Assembly (NCBI GenBank): GCA_017401985.1 | Contig: JAFPNK010000001.1 | Location: 1,861 to 65,860 of the forward strand | Direction: 5' to 3' | Source: Paludibacteraceae bacterium | GTDB taxonomy: Bacteria; Bacteroidota; Bacteroidia; Bacteroidales; Paludibacteraceae | Length of the DNA stretch: 64,000 nt | Shown here: positions 22,088 through 52,062 of the stretch, in pieces | Numbering within the stretch: the stretch's first letter is position 1 | Layout: every line of letters starts with the position of its first letter | Notes under the pieces: model-generated | Databases searched by the model: none | What the model was told of the DNA's origin: nothing | Seen by the model: the letters and a program-made list of their open reading frames with translations, nothing else | Program-made: the position numbers and the translations under genes

Positions 22088-22129
22088 ATGCCCTGTCCGT
22101 ATAATAACATAGAATGTTTCGAACTTTAG
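22088..22129 (+). pseudogene. Truncated duplicate of the 5' end of the small Cys-rich gene at 23617
   Basis: It encodes MPCPYNNIECFEL and then a stop. 27 of the first 30 nt are identical to 23617-23646. Confidence 0.5.
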
Positions 22130-22212
22130 AAAATATCGAAGTGAACTTTCGAAACCCTCGGAATAAAAACATCAAAAAGTTCGGAGTAAACTCTCCAAAA
22201 TCTTCGGAATTA

Positions 22213-22244
22213 TTTGCATATATGAAATATTTTTTGTAATTTTG
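22213..22244 (+). promoter_or_regulatory. Promoter: TTTG-N20-TAatTTTG
   Basis: TTTG lies at 22213-22216 and TAatTTTG at 22237-22244, 25 nt upstream of the ATG at 22270. Confidence 0.7.
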
Positions 22245-22269
22245 CGGCGGATTTCTAAATCGAACACAT

Positions 22270-23544
22270 ATGAAATATCTCGAACGTATTGGTGATGAAC
22301 TGCTCAAACGCAAACTTCGTAGTAGTGCAGCAGTACTGATTGAAGGTCCTAAATGGTGCGGCAAGACCTCGATGGGTGCGCAGCTAGCCAAGAGCATCAT
22401 CTATATCCAAGATCCGGACAAGCGTGCCATGTATCGAAAGATGGCAGATTCTCAGCCTTCGCTTTTACTGGAAGGAGAGACGCCGCATATGCTGGATGAA
22501 TGGCAGACAATACCGGTTTTATGGGATGCCGTTCGTTTTGCAGCAGACCAACGTCAAGAGATGAACCAGTTTATTCTTACCGGTTCGGCTACTCCGCTGG
22601 ATGAGGACGAGAACAGCGAGATGGAGCACACCGGAACGGGTCGTATCGCTCGCTTGCGTATGCGTCCGATGAGTCTCTGGGAGTCTAAAGAATCGCGCGG
22701 ACAGGTATCGCTGAAAGCGCTCTTTGACGGTACACAAGAGATGGGACTGTTCGAGAACCCGCTTACGATTAAAGACCTGGCATATGTCATGTGCCGTGGA
22801 GGTTGGCCCGGTGCATTAGGACTGGAAAAAGAGGACGCGCTGGAAGTGGCGGTTAACTTAGTGGACGAGTTGGTCAATACCGATGTTAACCGTGTGGATA
22901 AAACGGAGAAGAACCCCGACAGAGTACGCGCGGTACTTCGTAGTTACGCACGAAACATCTCTACCATGACGGCCGCCACTACCATCATGGCGGACGTGAA
23001 GGCGAACGATATTTCCATTACCGATAAGACGCTGACTAACTATCTGACGGCATTGCGTCGGCTGTTCATCGTAGAAGACGCGAAGGCTTGGCAACCGAGC
23101 CTGCGTAGCAAGACCGGTATCCGTACATCAAACAAACGCCATTTCGTGGATACCAGCATCGCTACAGCGGTTTTGGAACTGAACCCGACCAGCATCCTCG
23201 AAGATTTTAATCTGTTTGGCTTTCTGTTCGAAGATTTCTGCATGCGCGATGTGCGTGTATATACAGAGCCGCTGAGAGGAACTGTATATCACTATCATGA
23301 TAATTCCGAGTTAGAGTCGGATTTGATTATACGTCTTCATGACGGTCGATGGGCGGCTGTGGAAGTGAAAACAGGCAGCAAGGAAATAGAGGAAGCGGCT
23401 GAGAACCTGATCAAGTTATCCAAGACAGTGGATACATCCACAATCGGCGAACCGTCCTTCCTGATGGTGCTCACCGCCGGCCAATTTGCCTATCGTCGCG
23501 CAGATGGCGTATATATTGTGCCGATAGGGTGCTTAAAAGACTAA
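22270..23544 (+). CDS. AAA-type ATP-binding protein of the COG1373 / DUF4143 kind
   Basis: 424 aa. It has Walker A (GPKWCGKTS), a Walker B-like segment (FILTGS), and a C-terminal restriction-endonuclease-like segment (ESDLII...AAVEVK). Confidence 0.75.
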   Translation: MKYLERIGDELLKRKLRSSAAVLIEGPKWCGKTSMGAQLAKSIIYIQDPDKRAMYRKMADSQPSLLLEGETPHMLDEWQTIPVLWDAVRFAADQRQEMNQFILTGSATPLDEDENSEMEHTGTGRIARLRMRPMSLWESKESRGQVSLKALFDGTQEMGLFENPLTIKDLAYVMCRGGWPGALGLEKEDALEVAVNLVDELVNTDVNRVDKTEKNPDRVRAVLRSYARNISTMTAATTIMADVKANDISITDKTLTNYLTALRRLFIVEDAKAWQPSLRSKTGIRTSNKRHFVDTSIATAVLELNPTSILEDFNLFGFLFEDFCMRDVRVYTEPLRGTVYHYHDNSELESDLIIRLHDGRWAAVEVKTGSKEIEEAAENLIKLSKTVDTSTIGEPSFLMVLTAGQFAYRRADGVYIVPIGCLKD

Positions 23545-23616: not shown

Positions 23617-23763
23617 ATGCCCTGTCAATTTAATAACATAGAATGTCCCTGTCCGAAGGAAGGATGTCCGCGGCACGAGAAATGCTGTGAGTGTGTGAAG
23701 CATCATAGAGAACACGGAAAGAAACTACCCACATGCTTGCGCGGCATAGAGTGGGAACAATAA
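23617..23763 (+). CDS. Small Cys/His-rich protein (48 aa), absent from the ORF track
   Basis: MPCQFNNIECPCPKEGCPRHEKCCECVKHHREHGKKLPTCLRGIEWEQ. The pattern C.C....C.R...CCEC..H......LP.C resembles a small conserved family that I recall being annotated DUF6485. That assignment is unverified. Confidence 0.55.
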   Translation: MPCQFNNIECPCPKEGCPRHEKCCECVKHHREHGKKLPTCLRGIEWEQ

Positions 23764-23796
23764 TTTTTCCTAATATCGATAATTTTTTGACAACTA

Positions 23797-23828
23797 TTTG
23801 CATATGTCAAAAAAAAGCAGTAATTTTG
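23797..23828 (+). promoter_or_regulatory. Promoter of the seven-gene operon: TTTG-N20-TAatTTTG
   Basis: TTTG lies at 23797-23800 and TAatTTTG at 23821-23828. The spacer is catatgtcaaaaaaaagcag. Confidence 0.7.
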
Positions 23829-23925
23829 TAGCCGTTTTAGTTGAATCATACTAAGGAACACACATTATATTATATCGGAGGATGCCGAAAATCCGCAGAA
23901 GAGTAGGCACATATGCACTATTATC

Positions 23926-24975
23926 ATGGGAGAAAATAGATTCCTTAAAATCTTTGCATTGGTAGCGTTTGTTGCCTTTGCAGCTGTCAGTTGCTGGTCA
24001 ACGACAGAATCGCTGTTTTTGACTTTGGAGAACGCACAGATTCCAAAGTGGGTGTTTTGGATCGCAGTTGTGGGCCTTTATGTACTAACTTCTATCTGCA
24101 CTAAATTGGTATTAGACACGTTCAACCAAAACATTTACATGGAGCATCGCACCATTAAATTCATTGTTGGGCTGCTTGGCGTAATCATGCTCTGGGTGGT
24201 ATTTAGTATGCCTACCAATGCACACACGTTCTTCTACAAGCAGATGGCAAAGAACACCGCGGTCAAAGAGTTAAAACATATTGACGGTGAGTTGCAGAAA
24301 TTATCCAGCGAAACCACCTTCCTCGATGTTTATAATGCGGAGTGGAATAAGTACGAAGCTGATGTCCTGAATGCGTTAGCCGGCATCAAACGCGAGATTA
24401 ATGACTTCCAAAATGTAGGCACGGGTGACAAAACTGAAGCCCGCATTGTTGATGTGGAGGATTTGTTGGGCTTAAAAACCGGTACTATTGCCAGAATACG
24501 TGCTCGTAATAATTCGCAAAAAGAGTTGAATAAAGTATGTGAGTATTACGATAAGGCTGTCAAAGAACAGTTGGAAATCAAAAAGCAGCAACATGAAGCC
24601 AGAGTGGCACAAGCATTGTTGGACTTCCAAGAAAGGACAAAGAATGTAGGACCTTTGCGTCGTGATATAAAAGCCACATTGGAGCAGTTGGATGATCCAC
24701 AATACGACAAAGAGGCCGTTTTGAAGAATGCACGTATTCTTGTTGGAAAATCATATGCTGAATTAGAGTCACAGTTCAATGGATTGTATACCTACGATGA
24801 GACTATATATCGCTCTGACCGTTTGGTGAAGGTAACCAAAGTATGGGGTGACTATTTTAAGGGGAAATTCAGACATACCGATTACACGTTGTGGTACTGG
24901 ATCCTGCTTTCCGTCATCGTGGACATCGCAGCATTCGCATTCTTCAGCATTGCTTTTAAGAAAGAGGATTATTAA
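23926..24975 (+). CDS. Operon gene A: polytopic membrane protein with a long helical/coiled-coil soluble region, function unknown
   Basis: 349 aa. Three N-terminal hydrophobic helices are followed by about 200 aa of charged helical sequence and a C-terminal hydrophobic helix (LWYWILLSVIVDIAAFAFFSIAF). Confidence 0.75.
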   Translation: MGENRFLKIFALVAFVAFAAVSCWSTTESLFLTLENAQIPKWVFWIAVVGLYVLTSICTKLVLDTFNQNIYMEHRTIKFIVGLLGVIMLWVVFSMPTNAHTFFYKQMAKNTAVKELKHIDGELQKLSSETTFLDVYNAEWNKYEADVLNALAGIKREINDFQNVGTGDKTEARIVDVEDLLGLKTGTIARIRARNNSQKELNKVCEYYDKAVKEQLEIKKQQHEARVAQALLDFQERTKNVGPLRRDIKATLEQLDDPQYDKEAVLKNARILVGKSYAELESQFNGLYTYDETIYRSDRLVKVTKVWGDYFKGKFRHTDYTLWYWILLSVIVDIAAFAFFSIAFKKEDY

Positions 24976-24998
24976 TCAATAAAACCATTCATTATACT

Positions 24999-25976
24999 AT
25001 GGCACAAGTTAATATAGGGGAAGAGCAAACCCCCGTTATCGCACCTGAAACGAATGAACCGACGATTCAAGAAGCCGCTCCTGTGCAAGAACCGGCAGTA
25101 GAAGCTGCTCCGAACGAAAAGGGAGATGACAAACTGTTGCTCCCGAGTGATAAGATTGTTGGATTGACCAAAGAGGAATTAAATGACCCGAATAAGATTA
25201 GCGTAACCATTGCAGACAAGGACGCACCAATCGTAGTGCTCTTTGGTCCGCCGGCTTGCGGTAAAACCATGACCCTGGTTCGCTTGACTCGTTATTTACG
25301 TGAGAACGGCTACACTATCACACCGATTCGCACATTCCGCCCTACCTACGATTCTAACTACTCGGAGATTTGCGATAACTTCGATGTAATGATGAATCAG
25401 GATGATGCCGCTGCTTCTACCAGTAAGATCAGCTTCATGTTGGTAAAAGTAAGCAAAAACGGACGCACTATTTGCCAAATCTTGGAGGCTCCGGGTGAGT
25501 ATTATTTCAACCCAAAAACGCCGAAAAGTCCGTTCCCCGGATATTTCAATACCATCAAATCCAGTCGCAACCGCAAGATCTGGACTATTATGGTCGAACC
25601 GGATTGGGCTAATACCAATGACCGTTTGAACTACGTGGATCGAATTAAGAAACTGAGGACCCAAATGTCCACTAAAGACAAAACGATTATCGTTTACAAC
25701 AAGATTGATATGACGGATTTCTTGATTGACAACAGCGGAAATGCGCATATGAATCTGGCACGTAAGAATATTCGTGACTTGTATCCAAATATTTTTGAAC
25801 CCTTTAAAAACACCAATCCGATTGTAAGTTGGTTCACTCCATATCGTTTGGACTTCACCATCTTCCAAACCGGTGACTACTCTCAGGCTGCTGACGGTTC
25901 GTACTTGTTCCAGCAAGGACCGGACGTCTTCCCACGTCGTCTATGGAAACTTATTCTTAAAGACGTAAGAGGATAA
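24999..25976 (+). CDS. Operon gene B: P-loop NTPase with Ras-like GTPase motifs and a disordered N-terminal region
   Basis: 325 aa. The first ~75 aa are P/E/A-rich. G1 is GPPACGKT (nt 25245-25268), G3-like is LEAPGE (25482-25499), and G4 is NKID (25698-25709). Confidence 0.7.
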   Translation: MAQVNIGEEQTPVIAPETNEPTIQEAAPVQEPAVEAAPNEKGDDKLLLPSDKIVGLTKEELNDPNKISVTIADKDAPIVVLFGPPACGKTMTLVRLTRYLRENGYTITPIRTFRPTYDSNYSEICDNFDVMMNQDDAAASTSKISFMLVKVSKNGRTICQILEAPGEYYFNPKTPKSPFPGYFNTIKSSRNRKIWTIMVEPDWANTNDRLNYVDRIKKLRTQMSTKDKTIIVYNKIDMTDFLIDNSGNAHMNLARKNIRDLYPNIFEPFKNTNPIVSWFTPYRLDFTIFQTGDYSQAADGSYLFQQGPDVFPRRLWKLILKDVRG

Positions 25977-25980
25977 GACT

Positions 25981-27591
25981 ATGGATGTGGAGATTTTATT
26001 ACATGGTGTTCCTGATGGACAGGATTACTATGGCGTGAAAGAAGAGCAGACAAACATGGGGTTGTTCTATGACAACTCCATGGAGTCTGTCAAATTCGTA
26101 GTAGAAACCAAGAAACAGGGGAATGTAGCATACACGTACTATTCCTACTTGCGTTATCGCGGGATGATCGGTGCCGGTGGTCGCCCCGGTTCCTATTTCG
26201 GAATAACGCTGCGTATTGATAAGTACTATCAGGACGCGCTGCATATATACCAATTGCTGGATATTGTCTTCAAAAGACACATTGTGGGCACATTGCTAAC
26301 ACCATCTGGTGAAGCATACAAGTATATCACCCCTAGTTTTACAGCTAAATCGGCAGAGATTGAACAAGCACAGCAAGCGTTGATTCAACTGATTCAAACC
26401 ACCTGCGTTTCCTCCAAATTCATCAACATCGATGCCAGCATGATTCATCCGATCTCTGTCGTTCCGACTGGGAACTTTATGGATGTATCCGATGCTGCTA
26501 TCCTTTCTTCTATCAAAAAGTATTCAAAAGTTGTCATCTCTCCTGACTATGAGATGAATATTGAGAAAGAATACAAGAAAAAAATGACCGATGTAGAGGG
26601 GAAAGTAAGTGGTGTTGCTGCAGAAAAGGACAAACAGATTGCCGACCTCAAATCGTCTATTGCTGCGCTTCAAAACAGAATAACCACACTGGAGCAAGAA
26701 AAAAAAAGTAGAGAAACTGATCTGCAGCAATATAAAAAGAACGGTAGTCTAACACAAGCCGTTGGGCAGATTAAAGAACCCATCACGTCCCTGGCAAACT
26801 ATTTCCGCAGCAAAGAGGAACCTCAACCGGAAACGACCGGATATAATTTCAAAAGTGACTTATTTGGCATGGTCAATTGCGCACTGTTAGTAGTCCTATT
26901 GAGTCTTGGTATTTACGGGATTTTCTTCGCTCCGTCCGAAGGCAATTGGAAAGAGCGGGTAGCGGCGCTTGAGAAGGAAAATCAAGAGTTGGCGCAAGCT
27001 GTGCAACAGCGCGATTCGATTATCAAAGGGTTTAGGGAAGGTCGTATATCGGGAAGCGAAGCGACTGATGACAATACCCTTATTATTGATGTAGAAGGAT
27101 ACGTCTCCGGCCAGATGGCTACCGATAAACGATACACTGTTGTAATCAAAAACAAAGGTGCACAGTTTGCAGGACAAGGAGAGTGGAAACTGACCAATGC
27201 GAAACTCATAACCGGTAAGAAAACAGATGCCAAGATTGTAATTCAACCGGACGGAAAGGGAGATGTCGCCATCGCATACACCGCGAAAGATACGCAACTT
27301 AAGTGCAACCCGCGTACTTTTGAGATTAAAAAACCGGATGTTATTAACTTCACCATCGTGATGGACCCTGACGATAAGGAAGTGGAACCGGGAAAGGCAT
27401 ATACCTTCAAGATCAATGGTTACAACGGAAAGGGCACATGGGGGGTAGATGGATTCGAAGCACCAGCTGACAAGAGAGCTAAGACTATCACCGTTAAAGC
27501 ATTGAGCGGAAACAAAACAGCCGTCGTTTCTTTCACTCCGGATGGAGGCGCTAAACAGAGAAAAACAATTCAAGTAAAAGCCAATGAGTAA
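25981..27591 (+). CDS. Operon gene C: bitopic membrane protein (N-terminal globular domain, coiled coil, TM, coiled coil, repeated beta-sandwich-like C-terminus)
   Basis: 536 aa with no signal peptide. The TM spans aa 294-316. Heptad-like segments flank it. The C-terminal ~170 aa are beta-rich with two similar segments. It is a paralog of gene E. Confidence 0.75.
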   Translation: MDVEILLHGVPDGQDYYGVKEEQTNMGLFYDNSMESVKFVVETKKQGNVAYTYYSYLRYRGMIGAGGRPGSYFGITLRIDKYYQDALHIYQLLDIVFKRHIVGTLLTPSGEAYKYITPSFTAKSAEIEQAQQALIQLIQTTCVSSKFINIDASMIHPISVVPTGNFMDVSDAAILSSIKKYSKVVISPDYEMNIEKEYKKKMTDVEGKVSGVAAEKDKQIADLKSSIAALQNRITTLEQEKKSRETDLQQYKKNGSLTQAVGQIKEPITSLANYFRSKEEPQPETTGYNFKSDLFGMVNCALLVVLLSLGIYGIFFAPSEGNWKERVAALEKENQELAQAVQQRDSIIKGFREGRISGSEATDDNTLIIDVEGYVSGQMATDKRYTVVIKNKGAQFAGQGEWKLTNAKLITGKKTDAKIVIQPDGKGDVAIAYTAKDTQLKCNPRTFEIKKPDVINFTIVMDPDDKEVEPGKAYTFKINGYNGKGTWGVDGFEAPADKRAKTITVKALSGNKTAVVSFTPDGGAKQRKTIQVKANE

Positions 27592-28102
27592 ATTTAATTT
27601 TAGTTGCTTGCTTCTTACTGTCACCTTAGCGTTATCTGCATGCGGCGGCAAGATCAAACCGGAGCCTTTGAGTAGTACCGCATATTACTCAGATGACTAT
27701 ACCGGTGTGATTGAAGTTCCGTTTACAAACGAAGATGGTGTGCGCATCATTCATGTTAGAATCAATGGAAGCCCCGAGTATCCTATGATTTTCGATACCG
27801 GATGCTCCGGTGTTTCTATCTCTGTTCTTGAATTAGGCACTTTACTCAAATATGGTTACATTTCTGAGGAAGACGTGCTCGATGAAATGGTAGAGACACA
27901 GATAGCAGACGGCAGTACTACGACTGAACATGTTGTGAATATCCGAAAACTTCAGATTGGGGATTATGAGTGCCACAATGTGAAGGCTTACGTTTCTGAA
28001 AACATAGAAGCACCGCTTCTATTAGGAAATGAAGCGCTAAAGGAAGTGAAATCGTTCATTGTAGATGAAGAAGACAAAGTCATTCGATTTCAACTTCGAT
28101 AA
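27584..28102 (+). CDS. Operon gene D: retropepsin-like (clan AA) aspartic protease lipoprotein
   Basis: Lipobox LALSAC. The catalytic motif is MIFDTGCSGVSIS. The family pattern also includes INGSPEYPM and APLLLGNEAL. An 8-nt overlap links it to gene C. Confidence 0.8.
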   Translation: MSKFNFSCLLLTVTLALSACGGKIKPEPLSSTAYYSDDYTGVIEVPFTNEDGVRIIHVRINGSPEYPMIFDTGCSGVSISVLELGTLLKYGYISEEDVLDEMVETQIADGSTTTEHVVNIRKLQIGDYECHNVKAYVSENIEAPLLLGNEALKEVKSFIVDEEDKVIRFQLR

Positions 28103-28108
28103 CAGTAC

Positions 28109-28156
28109 GGTCAGGAGGGAACTTCAATGGCATCTCTCCTGACCATTTATTTTTTA
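28109..28156 (+). terminator. Intra-operon hairpin with a T-tract (possible attenuator or partial terminator)
   Basis: A 9-bp stem pairs GGTCAGGAG (28109-28117) with CTCCTGACC (28136-28144) around an 18-nt loop. It is followed by atttatttttt. Confidence 0.5.
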
Positions 28157-28161
28157 TGTAA

Positions 28162-29667
28162 ATGAAAGCAACAGTATACATCTTTGGAAAATTTGCGGAC
28201 GGATATTCGCAGTATCCGGATAACTACACCCGTGACTTATTCGAATCAGTCGCCAAATCGCGTAAGGGCGCTACTGAATTAGTGTATCACCGTGATGGAG
28301 CACTAACCTATTACATATACACACGTGAAGTGTCAAAATCCTCCAACACCTTTATCGGATTGTGCTATGTGTTTAACGGCATCCTGATCTCTGATTTTGG
28401 ATACCTATTCGACATTTTTGAAGATGCCATTACCAATATTGTTGTACAAGGGGAGATTCTCGAATTTACCAACGATGGTGCCCTCTCCACCAAAGTCAAT
28501 CAATTATACACGAATGCAGACGAATTGCAACGTGTTGCCGACTACCTTAACAGCAAACTATCCTCGTTAGGTAGATATGCAGAGAAACTACCTCCTGTAA
28601 ACTTCTCCGTGGCCAGCAACGAATGGAAAAACTTCTCGTTTGACGAAATAGAAACCGTACAAACGGCCATAAAAGACAATCCAAATATCCGTGTCATCAA
28701 AGGAAATAATTATGACACAGATACCCTAAAAGGGTATGCTCATAAACTCAAAACACAAAATGACACCATCCAAACATTAACCGCGGAGAAAGAAAAACTA
28801 AAAAATGAGATTTCCGCCCTCGAACGCAAGAAAAAACAATTCACTATCGTCATTATACTTACGATAATTATTGCTTTCGGAGCTATTATTTTTATAGCTG
28901 TGCTTAATAGTCACAATCAGACTATCAAAAGGAAGAACCGCCAGATTGAGCAACTGGAGAGCCACAGAGACCACCTGCGGCAAGATTCTATTTTCCTCAC
29001 TCGGAAAGTTGAATCTGTCAATGAATCTCTGAGAACCACCAGAACCAATTTGGAGGAACTGCGTGCCGAATATGCACTATTGGACTCCGCCAAGACGGAA
29101 CTGGATTCCATCTTCGCAGAACAAACAGAGAGATATCTTGCTCTCATTGACCGGAATAATGAATTAGAGAATATGATTGATAACATGGGGGCATATTCTT
29201 ACAATGGATATTCATCCGGTTATAGCAGTACCACATATACCGTGGGACCTTCCACCAGTTCTTCCATCGGAGGACATGACAAAGATTATGCCGAATGGTT
29301 ATATGCCTCTTCTTCGCTGAGAATCAACTCTTTCTATGTGCACGCCGATAAAAGCGGATACATCACCATTGGCTTGTATAATGCCTCCGGCGGATTGGTC
29401 GCTACACATAGAGCGTATGTCTCTTCCGGACAATGGACGCAAGTGTCTCCGTCTAATTTTGAACTCGAAAGCGGCAGAAAATACTACTTGGCGCTTTACG
29501 ATGCCAATGGCATTGCATTGAGTTACCACAGCTCGAATAGCAGCGAATATAGTAAGTACAAGAGGGGATCGTTGCAGATCATCGGATCGTGCTCCAAAAA
29601 CAGCTCCAACTACGGCTCCGGATATTATCAATATTTCTACAATATCAATTATTCGCTAAAAAATTGA
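28162..29667 (+). CDS. Operon gene E: bitopic membrane protein, paralog of gene C (N-domain, coiled coil, TM, ~100-aa coiled coil, S/Y/G linker, beta-sandwich)
   Basis: 501 aa. The TM spans aa 227-248. The N-terminal domain aligns with that of gene C (h.hhhG..dG..Y....F ... YY.Y.R ... F.G ... DIF). Confidence 0.75.
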   Translation: MKATVYIFGKFADGYSQYPDNYTRDLFESVAKSRKGATELVYHRDGALTYYIYTREVSKSSNTFIGLCYVFNGILISDFGYLFDIFEDAITNIVVQGEILEFTNDGALSTKVNQLYTNADELQRVADYLNSKLSSLGRYAEKLPPVNFSVASNEWKNFSFDEIETVQTAIKDNPNIRVIKGNNYDTDTLKGYAHKLKTQNDTIQTLTAEKEKLKNEISALERKKKQFTIVIILTIIIAFGAIIFIAVLNSHNQTIKRKNRQIEQLESHRDHLRQDSIFLTRKVESVNESLRTTRTNLEELRAEYALLDSAKTELDSIFAEQTERYLALIDRNNELENMIDNMGAYSYNGYSSGYSSTTYTVGPSTSSSIGGHDKDYAEWLYASSSLRINSFYVHADKSGYITIGLYNASGGLVATHRAYVSSGQWTQVSPSNFELESGRKYYLALYDANGIALSYHSSNSSEYSKYKRGSLQIIGSCSKNSSNYGSGYYQYFYNINYSLKN

Positions 29668-29671
29668 CACC

Positions 29672-30922
29672 ATGAATAAATACCTCAACTTCATTATAGG
29701 ACTCGCTATATTAAGCTTGGTCTCGTGCAGCAATAAGCAGACACCACCTGCTTTATTTTCAGGAAGCGAGGACGAAGATGAAACAGAGCAGACTGTCACA
29801 GCTCCCGTCTCTCCAACTGCACCAGGAGCGCCACAAACAAGCGTAGGACCACAGAATAGCAATATCCCGCAAATTATTTATGATATCTGGTCATACGCGC
29901 CACAAACCGTTAATATACCTGCAGAGACAACGATGGAACAGGCTATTTGTAGCACCTATCCCAATTTAAGAAGATGCTACGGATACACCAATGTCGGAGG
30001 TGCAAAACTGATTGGAGAGATGTCTGCGGATAAAGCAGGACATAATTATTCATTTTTTTCCTACCCCATTACACTACAGGTCATGTCACTACCCCAATTA
30101 CGTCTCGGATTCATCTCCAATCAAGATAATATCATGTGCCATGTTGTCAATCAAGAACTGGAGATTCAATCGGCAGATATCATCTATACCGGCAACGGGT
30201 TAGGCTTGGAGATGGATGTGCGCAATCGCACCGGCAGTGCGTATGCCGTCACGATAGAGCGAGGACAGATGGTAGAAGCGAAGGACAACCATGTGCAAAA
30301 TGTAGTGGTGAATGCTGATGTCGAGGGACAATTAACTCCTAATGGTTCACGACATTTCTCTATCCCTGTCTATTGCGCCTCCCATTACCGCAGTTCTCCT
30401 ACCGGAAGCAAGGCCAAAATGACACCATACGTAATGAATGCTTCTAGTACAACTTTCCAATCACAACAGCGCGTATGGGAGTTCATCGAATCAAATGACA
30501 ATCCAAACAGTTTTGTTACATTCTATGTTTGGGGTAAGGGAACTGTTACCGCGGCTGGAAGACGTAGCCCGCTTGGACACGCATTTATAAAAATACCACA
30601 AGTGGGAATACTCGGATTTGGATCAATGCATGGAGGTTTGTTAGATGACGATGGTATTATTTTTGACCACACTTCTAATCTCCAATACGCGACAGATAGT
30701 TGCCGTATCAAACTCTCCCGGGAAGCGCAACAAGCCATGGTAAGGAAACTTCGCCAACTGCAAGCGGATGTGCCCAACTATAGCGCAGGGCATTACGACT
30801 GTACCTCATTTGTTATGGATCTTGCAGATGCCGCAGGTATACGCTACGGTTCTCGAATCACCATTCAAACACCGGTGGGATTCATGCAAGAGCTTAAAGC
30901 ACATAACAATTACGCACAGTAA
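29672..30922 (+). CDS. Operon gene F: lipoprotein with an acidic, Pro-rich linker and a C-terminal domain carrying a DCTSF (NlpC/P60- or LRAT-like) Cys motif
   Basis: Lipobox LSLVSC. The linker reads SGSEDEDETEQTVTAPVSPTAPGAP. The C-terminal region contains SPLGHAFIKIP ... IIFDHTS ... GHYDCTSFVMDLADAAG. Confidence 0.7.
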   Translation: MNKYLNFIIGLAILSLVSCSNKQTPPALFSGSEDEDETEQTVTAPVSPTAPGAPQTSVGPQNSNIPQIIYDIWSYAPQTVNIPAETTMEQAICSTYPNLRRCYGYTNVGGAKLIGEMSADKAGHNYSFFSYPITLQVMSLPQLRLGFISNQDNIMCHVVNQELEIQSADIIYTGNGLGLEMDVRNRTGSAYAVTIERGQMVEAKDNHVQNVVVNADVEGQLTPNGSRHFSIPVYCASHYRSSPTGSKAKMTPYVMNASSTTFQSQQRVWEFIESNDNPNSFVTFYVWGKGTVTAAGRRSPLGHAFIKIPQVGILGFGSMHGGLLDDDGIIFDHTSNLQYATDSCRIKLSREAQQAMVRKLRQLQADVPNYSAGHYDCTSFVMDLADAAGIRYGSRITIQTPVGFMQELKAHNNYAQ

Positions 30923-31722
30923 TGAGAAAAAAGTTTCTTTTTGCCTTGACGGCGATGATGCTGATTGCTTGTGCCAACTCCACTCCGGCCAAGTCCAATC
31001 GGTTACAAAACTCTAATCTGACCGGTTGGAGCCAGTTGGAGATCCCCCGTCTTACCATTTCGCGCAGTCAGCAGATCATTGAGCACACCGGTTATACCGT
31101 CAGTTATAACCACGATTGGCGCATTCCCAATTGGGTAGCATACGAGTTGACGGATAGGGAAGTGGCAGGTGATCAACCGCGTGCGGATAAGTTCCTCCCT
31201 GACCCACTGGTATATGGCGACCCGGTAGTCACAAGCGACTACACTAAGTCTGGGTATGATCGTGGCCATATGGCACCGGCAGGGGATATGAAATGGTCCG
31301 AACAGGCAATGCGCGAATCGTTCTATATGACCAATATCTGCCCGCAGAACCGCAGCAATAATGCCGGTGACTGGAAAGATTTGGAAGAACTGGCGCGTGA
31401 CCTCGCACAGCGCTATAAGAGCATCTATATCTGCTGCGGACCAATCGTTACTGATTCATCTCAAACGATAGGAACCAAGCGCAAAATAGTGATACCGCAG
31501 TCGTTTTACAAAGTCTTCCTCCGTCAGAAGCACGATGGTTCGTGGACATCAATTGGCTTTGTTATGCCTAACGCGCCCGGCAATCGTCCCCTCATGACAT
31601 ATATGCTTTCTGTAGACGAAGTGGAACAACTCACCGGCATCGATTTCTTCTATAACCTCCCCGACTCCGTAGAAAACATCATCGAAGCAGACTACACTAT
31701 CTCCGACTGGATAGTGCGGTAA
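30922..31722 (+). CDS. Operon gene G: DNA/RNA non-specific endonuclease (NucA/EndoG family) lipoprotein
   Basis: Lipobox MMLIAC. The active site is YDRGHMAP, followed by NICPQNRSNNAGDWKDLEE. A 1-nt TAATG overlap links it to gene F. Confidence 0.88.
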   Translation: MRKKFLFALTAMMLIACANSTPAKSNRLQNSNLTGWSQLEIPRLTISRSQQIIEHTGYTVSYNHDWRIPNWVAYELTDREVAGDQPRADKFLPDPLVYGDPVVTSDYTKSGYDRGHMAPAGDMKWSEQAMRESFYMTNICPQNRSNNAGDWKDLEELARDLAQRYKSIYICCGPIVTDSSQTIGTKRKIVIPQSFYKVFLRQKHDGSWTSIGFVMPNAPGNRPLMTYMLSVDEVEQLTGIDFFYNLPDSVENIIEADYTISDWIVR

Positions 31723-31831: not shown

Positions 31832-31863
31832 CTTGCGTATATCAAAAAAAAGCAGTACTTTTG
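31832..31863 (+). promoter_or_regulatory. Promoter: cTTG-N20-TActTTTG, upstream of nadB
   Basis: cTTG lies at 31832-31835 and TActTTTG at 31856-31863. The spacer is cgtatatcaaaaaaaagcag. Confidence 0.7.
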
Positions 31864-31991
31864 CAGTCGCAAAAGTTTTGGAGCGTATATGAAAAATGCA
31901 GCGGATAAGAAACTGCAGGATGTGACGATTAAGAAATTGACTTACGGCAATCCGACCATGCGTGCGAAGTTTGCCGAGAATATTGATAAAA

Positions 31992-33593
31992 ATGACTAAG
32001 AAGTACGATTTTTTGATTATCGGCGGAGGGGTAGCCGGTATGAGTTTTGCGCTGAAAGTGGCGCAAGCGGGTAAGTACAAGATTGCGTTGTGCTGCAAGA
32101 CGACGTTGGAGGAGGCCAATACGGCCAAGGCGCAGGGCGGCATAGCGTCCGTCACCAATCTGCTGGTGGACGATTTTGAGAAGCATATCCATGATACGAT
32201 GGTGGCGGGTGACTGGTTGAGTGATCCGGCAGCCGTAGAGCAAGTGGTTCGTAATGCGCCGAAAGGTATAGCGGACTTGGTTAAGTGGGGTGTTAACTTC
32301 GACAAGAAAGATGACGGTGCGTTCGATCTGCATCGCGAAGGCGGTCACTCGGAGTTCCGTATCTTGCACCATGCGGATGACACGGGCTTTGAGATTCAGC
32401 GCGGTCTGATGGCGGCTGTTCGGGCCAATCCGTCGATTGATGTGCTGGAGAACCATTTTGCGGTAGAGATCATCACGCAGCACCATCTGGGCGTTCGTGT
32501 GACGCGTCGTACGCCGGATATAGAGTGCTACGGCGCATATATACTGAACCCCAAGACGCAGAAGATTGACACTTATCTGAGTCGTATCACGCTGATGGCC
32601 ACGGGCGGCACGGGAGCTGTGTATGCGACCACGACCAATCCGGAGATTGCGACCGGCGACGGTATCGCTATGGTCTATCGTGCGAAAGGGCAGGTGCGCG
32701 ACATGGAGTTCGTTCAGTTCCACCCGACGAGCCTGTATAACCCGCAGGAGACGCATCCGGCTTATCTGATTACGGAAGCGATGCGCGGGTACGGTGGTAT
32801 CTTGCGTTTGCCGAATGGCGAGGAGTTCATGCAGAAATACGACCCGCGTCTGAGTTTGGCTCCGCGTGATATCGTGGCGCGCGCTATTGATAACGAGATG
32901 AAGATTCACGCGATTGATCATGTGTGCCTGGATGTGACGCATAAGGATCCGGAGGAGACCAAGCATCATTTCCCCAATATCTACGCCAAATGTCTGAGTA
33001 TAGGCATTGACATCACGAAAGAGTATATCCCCGTTGCGCCGTGTGCGCACTATATGTGCGGCGGTATCAAGGTGGACTTGGACGGACAGTCGTCGATACA
33101 CCGTTTGTACGCGGTAGGCGAGTGTTCGTGCACGGGTCTGCATGGCGGTAACCGCTTGGCATCGAACAGTCTGATTGAGGCAGTGGTCTATGCCGATGCG
33201 GCTGCCAAGCATAGCTTGAGTGTGATTGATCACTACGATTTTAACACGAAGATACCGGCCTGGAACGATGAGGGCACGCTGAGTAACGAAGAGCGCGTGC
33301 TGATTGCGCAAGACGTGAAAGAAGTGGGACAGATCATGTCCACGTACGTGGGCATCGTTCGTTCGGACCTGCGTCTGCGTCGTGCTTGGGAACGTCTGGA
33401 TCTGCTGTACGAAGAGACGGAAGACCTGTTCAAACGCGTGAAAGCGGATAAGGAGATTTGCGAGTTGCGCAATATGATCAATGTGGGTTATCTGATTACG
33501 CGCCAGGCGATGGAGCGTAAGGAGAGCCGTGGTCTGCATTACTCGATCGATTATCCGCGCACACAGAATGACCACCCGCAGGAGGTATGGTAG
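31992..33593 (+). CDS. nadB: L-aspartate oxidase
   Basis: It has the FAD-binding N-terminus YDFLIIGGGVAGMS and succinate dehydrogenase/fumarate reductase flavoprotein-like motifs (HYMCGGI, GECSCTGLHGGNRLASNSL). I trimmed the start to the ATG at 31992. Confidence 0.92.
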   Translation: MTKKYDFLIIGGGVAGMSFALKVAQAGKYKIALCCKTTLEEANTAKAQGGIASVTNLLVDDFEKHIHDTMVAGDWLSDPAAVEQVVRNAPKGIADLVKWGVNFDKKDDGAFDLHREGGHSEFRILHHADDTGFEIQRGLMAAVRANPSIDVLENHFAVEIITQHHLGVRVTRRTPDIECYGAYILNPKTQKIDTYLSRITLMATGGTGAVYATTTNPEIATGDGIAMVYRAKGQVRDMEFVQFHPTSLYNPQETHPAYLITEAMRGYGGILRLPNGEEFMQKYDPRLSLAPRDIVARAIDNEMKIHAIDHVCLDVTHKDPEETKHHFPNIYAKCLSIGIDITKEYIPVAPCAHYMCGGIKVDLDGQSSIHRLYAVGECSCTGLHGGNRLASNSLIEAVVYADAAAKHSLSVIDHYDFNTKIPAWNDEGTLSNEERVLIAQDVKEVGQIMSTYVGIVRSDLRLRRAWERLDLLYEETEDLFKRVKADKEICELRNMINVGYLITRQAMERKESRGLHYSIDYPRTQNDHPQEVW

Positions 33594-51429: not shown

Positions 51430-51461
51430 CAAAGGTACAACTTTTTTTCGATATATGCAAA
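51430..51461 (-). promoter_or_regulatory. Promoter: TTTG-N20-TAccTTTG on the minus strand, for the AraC-family gene
   Basis: The plus strand shows caaaggta at 51430-37 and caaa at 51458-61. Confidence 0.7.
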
Positions 51462-52030: not shown

Positions 52031-52062
52031 CAAAGGTACTGCTTTTTTTTGATATGACCAAA
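52031..52062 (-). promoter_or_regulatory. Promoter of tRNA-Glu (and possibly rpsT): TTTG-N20-TAccTTTG on the minus strand
   Basis: The plus strand shows caaaggta at 52031-38 and caaa at 52059-62. The spacer contains atatcaaaaaaaagcag. Confidence 0.7.

Follow-up and report, generated by a model that had tools for sequence, protein, structure and literature searches.

The nearest described counterparts of the locus considered here are the 'GTPase-centric' DO-GTPase/GAP1 conflict systems, a computational prediction of Kaur, Burroughs, Iyer and Aravind 2020 (PMC7159879). DO-GTPases are TRAFAC GTPases with a glutamate in Walker B that operate near the membrane alongside peptidases, sensor modules that vary, and effectors of the TIR or calcineurin type (PMC7159879). 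MglA-MglB, SR-beta/SRX and Rag/Ragulator each combine a switch of the small-GTPase fold with a pair of related alpha/beta domains, as the present locus appears to do. In Caulobacter, the periplasmic clan AA aspartic protease of the PodJ-PerP pair reportedly cleaves a bitopic coiled-coil protein. Zorya and Kiwa, which serve here as analogies, are multi-gene systems whose polytopic membrane components are conserved and which have long coiled coils; they are believed to detect events at the envelope and signal inward.

A gene run and its conserved core

We analysed a run of seven genes (A to G) in a window of 64,000 nucleotides from a Paludibacteraceae bacterium, with the following features.

23797..23828, + strand: Bacteroidetes-type promoter, exact consensus match (-33 TTTG, -7 TAATTTTG), serving the cassette
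23875..23909, + strand: DUF805b RNA motif (Rfam RF02914) in the 5' leader, 17 nt ahead of the A start codon
23926..24975, + strand: A, 349-aa polytopic membrane protein, core
24999..25976, + strand: B, 325-aa cytoplasmic protein, predicted TRAFAC-class GTPase, core switch
25981..27591, + strand: C, 536-aa bitopic protein, core, with a variable head
27584..28102, + strand: D, 172-aa lipoprotein, clan AA (retropepsin-like) aspartic protease with a DTG motif
28162..29667, + strand: E, 501-aa bitopic paralogue of C, core
29672..30922, + strand: F, 416-aa lipoprotein, clade-specific accessory
30922..31722, + strand: G, 266-aa lipoprotein, DRGH (Endonuclease_NS) non-specific nuclease, accessory

The seven same-strand genes and their junctions, given in the original prediction as 23, 4, -8, 59, 4 and -1 nt from A/B to F/G, are exact in the list of open reading frames. 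The promoter at their head fits the Bacteroidetes consensus (TTTG-N19-21-TAnnTTTG), which has nine matches in the window against 0.93 expected by chance, but it is not strictly the single promoter that had been proposed, since another match lies inside F (30637-30665), 257 nt ahead of G. A 10-nt inverted repeat (TTTTTTGACA/TGTCAAAAAA, 23783-23814) spans the -33 box; conservation of this repeat was looked for in the other cassette loci and not found. The DUF805b match covers the full-length model (cmscan, 41.6 bits with the gathering cut-off at 35.6, E = 2e-8), and a similar leader occurs elsewhere only in one related Paludibacteraceae locus (L011); it is a lineage-specific regulatory addition outside the cassette core.

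Sixty-two non-redundant related loci have flanks long enough to judge gene order; 49 of them show A-B-C-D-E and 10 show A-B-C-E, with median core junctions of 28, 5, 1 and 2 nt. At least 59 independent loci share this arrangement, far above chance; A is found in every locus with room for it, and D in about 80% of cassettes. The conserved unit consists of the five genes A to E only. Synteny thus bears out the claim of a genuine, co-transcribed-looking unit around a GTPase-like protein, the order A-B-C-(D)-E being kept in 59 of the 62 informative loci, but the seven-gene system must be given up, as F is confined to three related loci and G-like nucleases to four. The distribution is patchy, with 187 matches among 185,579 species genomes scattered over families, and the core spans Prevotellaceae, Bacteroidaceae, Porphyromonadaceae, Muribaculaceae, Paludibacteraceae, Rikenellaceae and one Saprospiraceae genome. 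No Pfam, NCBIfam or PADLOC family matched A, B, C or E, no component matched a known defence system in the PADLOC scan, and no published description of the cassette was found in the literature. To that extent the description of an unrecognised system stands, although the DO-GTPase/GAP1 concept (PMC7159879), which it did not name, comes close.

The GTPase and its envelope-spanning partners

B has a disordered N-terminal stretch of 55 aa and carries the motifs G1 (GPPACGKT), Walker B/G3 with a glutamate (LEAPGE) and G4 (NKID), of which GKT, ExPGE and NKxD are invariant across B homologues. Its AF2 model (pLDDT 84) was matched by Foldseek to the PDB GTPases Nog1, Rab, EF-Tu, GPN and Gtr1 (E = 5e-6 to 1e-3), and also to Arl and SR-beta; by modelled fold and motifs B is predicted to be a TRAFAC GTPase, in keeping with the Ras-like P-loop assignment made earlier. 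The B family forms 518 clusters at 50% identity, and among the best 150 of the 518 representatives an N-terminal TIR_2 domain is present on 11, a calcineurin-like phosphoesterase on one, and weak DO-GTPase1 or DO-GTPase2 matches, below threshold, in seven. One TIR-B gene sits in an array of TIR-RHS, TIR-WD40 and TIR-FGE-sulfatase genes.

A, whose conservation equals that of B across loci, comprises three N-terminal TM helices, a 230-aa helical insert and one C-terminal TM helix. Its K+R counts indicate an N-in topology, so the insert would be periplasmic. S22-C23-W24, P96-T97-N98-x-H100-T101 and D333 are invariant in an alignment of 65 sequences; no PDB or Pfam relative of A was found, the sole lead being a weak DUF4407 match in 3 of 65 homologues.

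In C, a cytoplasmic alpha/beta N-domain (residues 1-190) and a coiled coil precede the TM helix (298-316), and a periplasmic helix and a pair of Ig-like beta-sandwich domains follow it (AF2 model, pLDDT 85); its C-terminus gave Foldseek matches to Ig-like, invasin and intimin domains, and its N-domain no Pfam or PDB match. In E, an N-domain homologous to that of C leads through a coiled coil into the TM helix (229-247), beyond which lie a periplasmic coiled coil and a C-terminal head that varies; residues 1-307 of E share 31% identity with the fifth gene in B. luti. Profile-profile comparison (hhalign) aligned about 190 N-terminal residues of the two with a probability of 96.8-97.7% (E = 2e-10 to 2e-12), which makes C and E, by sequence comparison, true paralogues with a common new cytoplasmic domain, as had been suspected. 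The topologies put forward earlier also hold, with 3+1 TM helices in A, a soluble B, lipoboxes in D, F and G, and one TM helix in each of C and E, consistent with their spanning from cytoplasm to periplasm.

Conservation is graded along this architecture. In 177 locus pairs with B at least 60% identical, mean identities were 72, 69 and 65% for A, B and D, 45 and 49% for the cytoplasmic parts of C and E, and 22 and 25% for their periplasmic parts. The heads of C and E are swapped outright between close relatives and are heterogeneous, with Filamin, MORN, FGE-sulfatase-like and Fib_succ domains at other loci. D, whose gene overlaps C by 8 nt, matches Pfam PF13975 and PF13650 (Asp_protease_2 / gag-asp_proteas) at about 1e-11, above cut-off, and TIGR02281 'clan_AA_DTGA' weakly (3e-9, below cut-off); 60 homologues retain its motifs MIFDTGCSG and APLLLGN, and 51 of 65 carry a lipobox, so that its identification as a retropepsin-like lipoprotein is upheld. 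The periplasmic tail of C measures 46 aa in cassettes without D against 122 aa in those with it (p = 1.3e-4, with kinship ignored).

Set beside DO-GTPase/GAP1 systems, the cassette shares a TRAFAC-type switch with a Walker B glutamate, a conserved partner directly downstream, which can bear a C-terminal TM helix and extracellular Ig- or cadherin-type domains, many membrane-associated components, constant regulators joined to highly variable non-enzymatic sensor modules, associated peptidases, and mobile neighbourhoods, the GAP1-N1 type occurring in Bacteroidetes among others. TIR and calcineurin-phosphoesterase effectors are common to both, in the B family as fusions elsewhere. In contrast, B and its close relatives miss the Pfam DO-GTPase1/2 thresholds; by sequence the wider family resembles DO-GTPases weakly; the cassette has one GTPase rather than two paralogues and no zinc ribbons; and the new N-domain of C/E, the four-TM protein A and the lipoprotein D are missing from the published systems. 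GAP1-N/M/C, GASH, GAAD and FNIII-repeat domains were not detected in the cassette, GAP1 being the defining partner of DO-GTPase systems. The beta-beta-alpha-beta-beta-beta-alpha order of the C N-domain is typical of longin, a likeness of secondary structure only, and the C/E N-domain has no sequence similarity to longin-roadblock modules. Unlike MglA and the longin modules, B is 325 aa long with extra elements and a Walker B Glu, its partners are membrane-anchored and reach the periplasm, and no link to motility or polarity genes is seen. The PodJ-PerP parallel lies in a periplasmic retropepsin-like protease whose gene sits with genes for bitopic proteins of one layout (N-terminus in the cytoplasm, coiled coils, a single TM helix, C-domain in the periplasm), and in the tracking of D with the length of the C tail; C and E, however, have no PodJ homology, D is a lipoprotein, and its cleavage of C would be purely inferential. 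Zorya and Kiwa have no component homologous to those of the cassette, and no GTPase, paired bitopic sensors or aspartic protease.

Composition, neighbours and the 3' position

The cassette has a GC content of 0.440 against 0.492 in the rest of the window (0.40-0.455 in one-kb windows inside it, 0.45-0.55 in the flanks), and the lowest-GC 7.8-kb stretch of the window starts at 23201; the dip noted earlier is therefore real but smaller than the hand counts. In 49 of 52 loci the cassette is AT-richer than its flanks, the mean difference being 7.7 points, and the flanks are unrelated between loci, which strengthens the suggestion of horizontal acquisition, although the low GC may partly reflect the K/E/N-rich composition of coiled coils. 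A DUF4143/AAA_14 gene (PDC-S01-type) lies directly upstream of the cassette in the window, as originally described, and the rearrangement scar corresponds to a partial duplication around it (22088-22254 against 23617-23838). Across loci most immediate neighbours have housekeeping roles (LytB, cytidylate kinase, tRNA synthetases, OmpA), the OmpA family being commonest at 6 of 150, and integrases, transposases, a CBASS system and PDC candidates turn up only occasionally; the defence-island signal is therefore weak. Phage and plasmid collections lack the cassette, apart from one match in 2.9 million IMG/VR contigs.

Downstream of E the gene content changes from locus to locus. F homologues follow E only in L006, L008 and L011, and G-like genes lie 3' of the cassette in only four non-redundant loci, at variable distance. 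G is a DRGH nuclease lipoprotein as proposed (Pfam PF01223, Endonuclease_NS, 2.7e-56; PHROG nuclease family, 3e-39; lipobox). The papain-like call for F falls back on a non-significant phmmer match to the 'cysteine hydrolase' PDB 6v98 (E = 1.3), in which LGHA and DCTSFVxDLADAxG both aligned; by these motifs F may be a Cys/His hydrolase. Because of the narrow distribution of F and G, the proposed coupling of three hydrolases to the switch is limited to D. The first same-strand gene 3' of the cassette starts with a signal-peptide-like N-terminus in 21 of 36 loci, compared with 33 of the 162 upstream controls (Fisher p = 1.5e-5), and downstream same-strand genes overall in 45 of 87, with controls at 13-20%. 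The position is thus usually filled by some exported protein, at various loci an Endonuclease_NS, a Peptidase_M23, BACON proteins or a GDSL lipase; no common family or tag was detected among these genes, and 26 of the 62 cassettes with room lack a closely linked same-strand 3' gene.

A possible role in invader surveillance or envelope maintenance

We tentatively favour, at somewhat below an even chance, the reading that A-E form a horizontally mobile, GTPase-switched, envelope-spanning conflict module, most likely for anti-phage or other invader surveillance. The data establish which genes are present, how they are ordered and conserved, how B and C fold, that C and E are paralogues, how evolutionary rates are graded and that the B family includes fusions; all interactions, the way the signal runs, what A does, what D acts on and defence itself are inference. 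In the model, the rapidly evolving periplasmic heads of C and E, Ig-like or beta-sandwich in this genome, would act as sensors, and a signal would run down the coiled coils and single TM helices to the paired, conserved cytoplasmic N-domain, which would set the nucleotide state of B. B would then act on the equally conserved four-TM protein A, which would be a membrane effector or an enzyme. D would work periplasmically, probably on the head of C, and the variable 3' slot could supply exchangeable periplasmic effectors, here F and G.

Several observations argue for an immune function: a genuine syntenic unit with a GTPase in it; a constant core paired with variable, swapped heads; the signs of mobility in AT-richness, unrelated flanks, occasional integrase, transposase, CBASS and PDC-candidate neighbours and the DUF4143 gene upstream; the preference of the 3' slot for exported proteins; the link of D to C through tail length; and the TIR and phosphoesterase fusions, which lend new support to the conflict-system idea and suggest use of the B family in conflict contexts, although, lying outside the A/C/D/E context, they amount to guilt by association at the domain level. 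Against it stand a core without a recognisable toxic effector, an A protein conserved well beyond what is usual for pore-forming abortive-infection effectors, the below-threshold DO-GTPase link with GAP1 absent, the weak defence-island signal, and a rate gradient that is also compatible with a receptor whose host or environmental ligands vary.

In a rather unlikely, yet substantial, alternative, C and E would be receptors for host or environmental ligands (glycans, cell-wall state) that signal through B to A to remodel or maintain the envelope (tethering, vesiculation, polarity, division), with D processing the receptors as PerP is said to process PodJ in Caulobacter. The housekeeping flanks with their OmpA-family genes, the strong conservation of A, B and D, the lack of a toxin-like domain in the core and the near absence from phage and plasmid collections agree with such a non-immune device, and Filamin/Ig, MORN and Fib_succ_major heads and BACON neighbours are also typical of Bacteroidales glycan or surface binding. 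The patchy distribution, consistently lower GC, unrelated contexts, TIR or phosphoesterase fusions of the GTPase domain and head swapping among close relatives would, however, be unusual for a housekeeping machine.

It is improbable that A-E instead sort, anchor, activate or release the exported proteins encoded 3' (here F and G), for extracellular DNA or cell-wall processing or for attack on competitors. The enrichment and hydrolytic or surface-type content of the 3' genes, the start of F 4 nt past E and the start/stop coupling of F and G fit this proposal, and D could mature pro-proteins; yet many cassettes lack such a gene, those present share no detectable family or tag, A-E contain nothing like a known translocon, a sortase or a secretion component driven by ATP or GTP, and lipoproteins already bear their own Sec/Lol signals. 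Although F and G are not conserved partners, a promoter-like site lies inside F, and D and E are 59 nt apart in this genome, it is hardly credible that seven unrelated genes share a strand by chance, and for A-E this is refuted by the conserved order with junctions of 1 to 28 nt.

In conclusion, the A-E module is widespread but unstudied in gut Bacteroidales, and our best, tentative reading of it is a new GTPase-switched, envelope-sensing conflict system.

Gene order, distribution and composition

All seven plus-strand ORFs of the cassette, together with their junctions (23, 4, −8, 59, 4 and −1 nt, in order from A to G), were reproduced with exactly the coordinates first predicted. At the protein level they correspond exactly to MBQ3997728-34 from a Paludibacteraceae MAG, a set in which only D and G are not named ‘hypothetical’.

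Genes of the cassette
23926-24975, plus strand: gene A, four-TM protein
24999-25976, plus strand: gene B, predicted GTPase
25981-27591, plus strand: gene C, predicted bitopic protein, paralogue of E
27584-28102, plus strand: gene D, predicted aspartic protease lipoprotein
28162-29667, plus strand: gene E, predicted bitopic protein, paralogue of C
29672-30922, plus strand: gene F, lipoprotein, possible Cys/His hydrolase
30922-31722, plus strand: gene G, predicted DRGH nuclease lipoprotein

A scan of one genome per species found a relative in 187 species, and the best 80 loci from these were used for locus comparison. Carriers include Segatella copri, Parabacteroides distasonis, Porphyromonas endodontalis and Bacteroides luti, as well as members of Alistipes, Barnesiella, Muribaculaceae and Paludibacteraceae. 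Among the 62 non-redundant loci with enough DNA, 49 have the gene order A-B-C-D-E and 10 have A-B-C-E, and the median junctions across loci are 28, 5, 1 and 2 nt. F follows E in three close relatives only, and G-like nucleases lie downstream of the cassette in four loci, at variable distance. Because F and G are so rarely conserved, we regard the core as five genes and F and G as occupants of a variable slot 3′ of E. The original prediction of an undescribed seven-gene system is thus narrowed to A–E; literature searches on the gene combination, on follow-ups to the DO-GTPases and on DUF4407 returned no description of the cassette, and the A–E core is undescribed.

An expanded version in a Saprospiraceae genome (locus L091, 6850-15204), with A split into two ORFs, three paralogues bearing the C/E N-domain and extra unannotated genes interleaved, indicates that the cassette reaches beyond Bacteroidales. 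Although the cassette is typical of Bacteroidales, the contigs of seven loci (L008, L009, L010, L023, L057, L059 and L061) are assigned to MAGs named as Faecalimonas, Clostridia, Bacilli, Waltera, Akkermansia or Lachnospiraceae; mis-binned short contigs seem a likelier explanation than real transfer.

The cassette had been described as markedly AT-rich from hand counts. The dip is real, although smaller than those counts implied: GC content is 44.0% in the cassette versus 49.2% in the remaining window, and the lowest-GC 7.8-kb stretch of the window falls within the cassette. Across related loci, AT content exceeds that of the flanks in 49 of 52, with a mean difference of 7.7 points. The flanking genes differ between loci, with no conservation; they are chiefly housekeeping genes, and integrases, transposases, a CBASS system and PADLOC candidates are seen only occasionally. 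Defence matches among 150 flanking proteins (one CBASS, PDC-S27 twice, PDC-S02 and SoFic) were scattered and too weak, and defence-island enrichment was set aside as an argument. An origin from phages or plasmids was rejected, since 50,697 phage and 72,556 plasmid records contained no homologue of B; IMG/VR yielded a single B-homologue match. Searches for att-like direct repeats bounding the cassette found none, the repeats detected being copies of the promoter.

Predicted proteins of the cassette

Scans of A–G against Pfam, NCBIfam, PHROGs and PADLOC recognised D and G only, leaving A, B, C, E and F as orphans in these collections; with the PADLOC-DB v2.0 HMMs, A–G gave only chance-level coiled-coil or P-loop matches (best E = 1e-4).

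B has no TM helix by hydropathy, and its AlphaFold2 model (pLDDT 84) adopts a GTPase fold for which Foldseek returned Nog1, Rab, EF-Tu, GPN-loop, Gtr1 and SR-beta proteins at E = 5e-6 to 1e-3. The motifs GPPACGKT, LEAPGE and NKID are invariant across homologues, including the Walker B glutamate, E163, within LEAPGE. The model has a β-hairpin after switch I, and its top structural matches are TRAFAC GTPases. An SRP-like identity (SRP54/FtsY/FlhF, SIMIBI class) was dropped in favour of the TRAFAC fold because the profile match to PDB sequences that had raised it covers the P-loop alone (residues 57-125, E = 7e-4). The B family is large: a word-indexed search gave 1410 clusters at 90% identity, and an exhaustive profile search gave 518 at the 50% level, of which 282 reached E ≤ 1e-30.

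Hydropathy places three TM helices at the N-terminus of A and one at its C-terminus, flanking a 230-aa insert. The invariant residues S22-C23-W24, P96-T-N-x-H100-T and D333 lie at the predicted periplasmic ends of the TM helices, and a cytoplasmic loop, DSLNQNIYxEKRG, is also conserved; together these features suggest that A may be an enzyme or a gated conduit, beyond a mere anchor. The A profile matched nothing meaningful among PDB sequences, and a Pfam scan of 65 A homologues gave three weak DUF4407 matches and nothing else. That A could be a degenerate second GTPase, making the cassette a ‘double GTPase’ system, was rejected (hhalign probability of A versus B, 0.6%).

C and E each have one TM helix by hydropathy. 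The AlphaFold2 model of C (pLDDT 85) comprises an N-terminal α/β domain, a long helix, the TM helix, a periplasmic helix and two Ig-like sandwiches, with the N-domain confidently modelled in the order β-β-α-β-β-β-α. BLASTP detected no relation between C and E, whereas profile-profile comparison aligned their first ~190 residues with a probability of 96.8-97.7% (E = 2e-10 to 2e-12), showing them to be paralogues with a common new cytoplasmic domain. Neither N-domain profile matched anything meaningful among PDB sequences, a Pfam scan of 72 C N-domains revealed no relative, and matches to the two Ig-like domains at the C-terminus took up the whole Foldseek list obtained with full-length C.

The periplasmic C-terminal parts of C and E, here termed heads, are highly variable. 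The two Ig-like sandwiches that end C in the window are missing from most of its homologues; across loci, Filamin, MORN, FGE-sulfatase, Fib_succ_major or DUF805 domains turn up sporadically in the heads, others of which have no recognisable domain. When loci are compared pairwise at a B identity of 60% or more (177 pairs), the mean identity drops steeply from the core (A 72%, B 69%, D 65%) through the cytoplasmic portions of C (45%) and E (49%) to their periplasmic portions (22 and 25%), and some close relatives differ by the complete exchange of a head.

D carries a lipobox and scores above the Pfam cut-offs for Asp_protease_2 and gag-asp_proteas (44.4 and 43.7 bits versus 28.2 and 24.3), and its catalytic DTG motif is conserved in 60 homologues; D is thus a predicted member of the clan AA retropepsin-like aspartic proteases. 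The periplasmic tail of C is shorter in cassettes without D (46 aa versus 122 aa; p = 1.3e-4, ignoring phylogeny), which suggests that D is tied to the C head.

F and G also carry lipoboxes. By its match to Pfam PF01223 (Endonuclease_NS; 191 bits, E = 2.7e-56, above cut-off) and the YDRGHMAP sequence containing the DRGH active-site motif, G is assigned to the DNA/RNA non-specific endonuclease family. A proposed relationship between F and the recurrent sixth gene of Prevotellaceae cassettes was rejected (hhalign probability 1.4%). The first same-strand downstream gene encodes a signal-peptide-like N-terminus at 21 of 36 loci versus 33 of 162 upstream controls (p = 1.5e-5), and the families in this position are mixed: Endonuclease_NS, BACON, M23, DUF1810, DUF805, TPR and, in Prevotellaceae, an orphan secreted protein.

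Promoters, leader RNA and neighbouring genes

Features surrounding the cassette in the window
18952-21897, plus strand: putative leucine-rich-repeat surface protein of 981 aa with BspA-like repeats (by eye), upstream of the DUF4143 gene
22214-22250: promoter with the shared spacer
22270-23544, plus strand: AAA_14/DUF4143 ATPase gene (PADLOC candidate PDC-S01, 1e-62), directly upstream of the cassette and outside it
23617-23763, plus strand: small Cys-rich ORF of 48 aa (MPCQFNNIECPCPKEGCPRHEKCCECVKHH...), just upstream of the cassette promoter
23797-23828, plus strand: cassette promoter, TTTGCATATGTCAAAAAAAAGCAGTAATTTTG, fitting the Bacteroidetes promoter consensus
23798-23834: cassette promoter again, as the stretch with the shared spacer
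23875-23909, plus strand: DUF805b RNA (Rfam RF02914), 41.6 bits versus a gathering score of 35.6
31833-31869: promoter with the shared spacer
31962-33593: flavoprotein-like ORF of 543 aa, downstream of the cassette
51430-51461, minus strand: promoter with the shared spacer
52031-52062, minus strand: promoter with the shared spacer

The promoter consensus is matched nine times in the window, against 0.93 matches expected by chance. One match lies inside F (30637-30665, plus strand), 257 nt upstream of G, so G may have its own start besides transcription with the operon. Several promoters of the window have in common the −33 and −7 boxes and a near-identical spacer, TATATCAAAAAAAAGCAGTA, and the cassette promoter is 86% identical across 37 nt to that of the downstream nadB-like gene. 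Two ideas about the cassette promoter were rejected: a conserved operator, since the palindrome at the −33 box lacks conservation, and an invertible promoter, since flanking inverted repeats are absent.

The leader of A contains a full-length match (all 35 model positions) to the DUF805b RNA, a motif that is known from positions upstream of DUF805 genes and is a candidate for regulation in cis. At the gathering score this RNA is absent from 8 related loci, and a pattern scan of 85 related loci found similar upstream sequence in L011 only; the leader was therefore rejected as a family-wide feature. In a few related loci (for example L002), cassette proteins are fused to a DUF805 domain or have a DUF805 gene or domain encoded downstream. 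The RNA and these occurrences together hint at a regulatory link between DUF805 genes and the cassette.

The first 30 nt of the small Cys-rich ORF (copy at 22088-22117) and a copy of the promoter are duplicated upstream of the DUF4143 gene, so that a partial duplication of the ORF and promoter brackets this gene. It looks as if the DUF4143 gene was inserted into, or duplicated with, a unit of small ORF plus promoter, which fits the rearrangement scar reported for this site. L004, L013, L074 and L089 have similar DUF4143 or ATPase_2 genes in the vicinity of the cassette or of its relatives. Downstream of the cassette in the window lie higher-GC, housekeeping-looking ORFs, among them one of 272 aa and, on the minus strand, one of 664 aa.

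Possible roles of the cassette

The closest published parallel is with the DO-GTPases, TRAFAC GTPases with a Walker B glutamate whose downstream partner, GAP1, can bear a C-terminal TM helix and extracellular domains; as described by Kaur et al. 2020 (PMC7159879), these systems act near the membrane and employ variable non-enzymatic sensor modules along with peptidases and effectors of the TIR or calcineurin type. B resembles them in its TRAFAC-type fold and Walker B glutamate, and the logic of the cassette is alike. However, B of the window matched no DO-GTPase model at E ≤ 1, and among the best 150 B-family representatives six matched DO-GTPase2 and one DO-GTPase1, at 1e-4 to 1e-5 and below the gathering score. 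Pfam models of GAP1 (GAP1-N1/-N2, GAP1-M, GAP1-C) had no match in A, C or E at E ≤ 1 and none among 72 C N-domains or 65 A homologues; nor were GASH or fn3 (FNIII) components matched. Unlike the published DO-GTPase/GAP1 systems, the cassette also has a single GTPase. We therefore consider it to work like a GTPase-centric conflict system without being a member of that group.

DO-GTPase-type effectors (TIR, Metallophos) were seen only as B-family fusions outside the cassette: among the best 150 B-family representatives, 11 carry an N-terminal TIR domain and one a calcineurin-like phosphoesterase. The Walker B acid of the TIR-fused relatives is Asp. One TIR-B gene belongs to an array with TIR-RHS, TIR-WD40 and TIR-FGE-sulfatase genes, while the phosphoesterase-B gene is solitary, adjoined by Schlafen-like and DUF4143 genes; none of A, C, D or E was found near the examined genes of either kind. 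The array (metagenomic locus L087, 860-11237) looks like a separate TIR-rich conflict island, in which four successive TIR genes (TIR-RHS, 974 aa; TIR-WD40, 857 aa; TIR-FGE-sulfatase, 366 aa; TIR-B-type GTPase, 431 aa) precede genes for a RyR-domain protein of 94 aa and for a 705-aa protein that lacks annotation. Within cassettes, the only candidate effectors seen are the aspartic protease D and heterogeneous exported proteins. The TIR and phosphoesterase fusions of the B family, which lie outside the A/C/D/E context, are the chief lead towards the conflict role first proposed for the cassette, a role that is plausible but unproven.

In a conflict role, C and E would probably associate by way of the N-domains they have in common and their coiled coils, and their exchangeable heads would respond to an event at the envelope or to an invader. 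The paired N-domains could then govern the nucleotide state of B, which would act on A, while D might trim or release the C head and the proteins of the 3′ slot, here F and the nuclease G, would serve as periplasmic or surface effectors. The modelled order of secondary-structure elements in the C N-domain resembles that of longin domains, which like roadblock domains are a type of regulator of Ras-superfamily small GTPases. A bolder and unlikely extension is a wholly new kind of bacterial signalling and immune machine in which a receptor-like, longin-like C/E heterodimer would be the GEF/GAP platform for a dedicated TRAFAC GTPase, and A a membrane enzyme or gated pore acting on the envelope or on exported cargo, its invariant Cys23, His100 and Asp333 being grouped at the predicted periplasmic face; if true, prokaryotes would have an equivalent of the signalling from receptors to small GTPases known in eukaryotes.

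That the cassette is an envelope or signalling machine with no immune function is a possible, if tentative, alternative, supported by the housekeeping flanks, the conservation of A, B and D, and the lack of a toxin. That the core is instead an apparatus deploying the exported proteins of the 3′ slot we consider unlikely, and the notion of A–G as chance neighbours, refuted for A–E, is very improbable.

Bacteroidales of the gut and rumen are among the most abundant bacteria in animals, and little of what they possess for phage defence and envelope signalling has been mapped. Four protein families of the cassette have no curated model (A, B, C and E), C and E having a new N-domain in common, and the cassette occurs in culturable species (S. 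copri, P. distasonis, P. endodontalis and B. luti). If it is an immune system, it would represent a trans-envelope, GTPase-switched defence with exchangeable periplasmic sensor heads, and a tractable experimental model for the predicted ‘GTPase-centric conflict system’ concept. If it is not, it would still be a conserved GTPase-controlled envelope device in major gut commensals.
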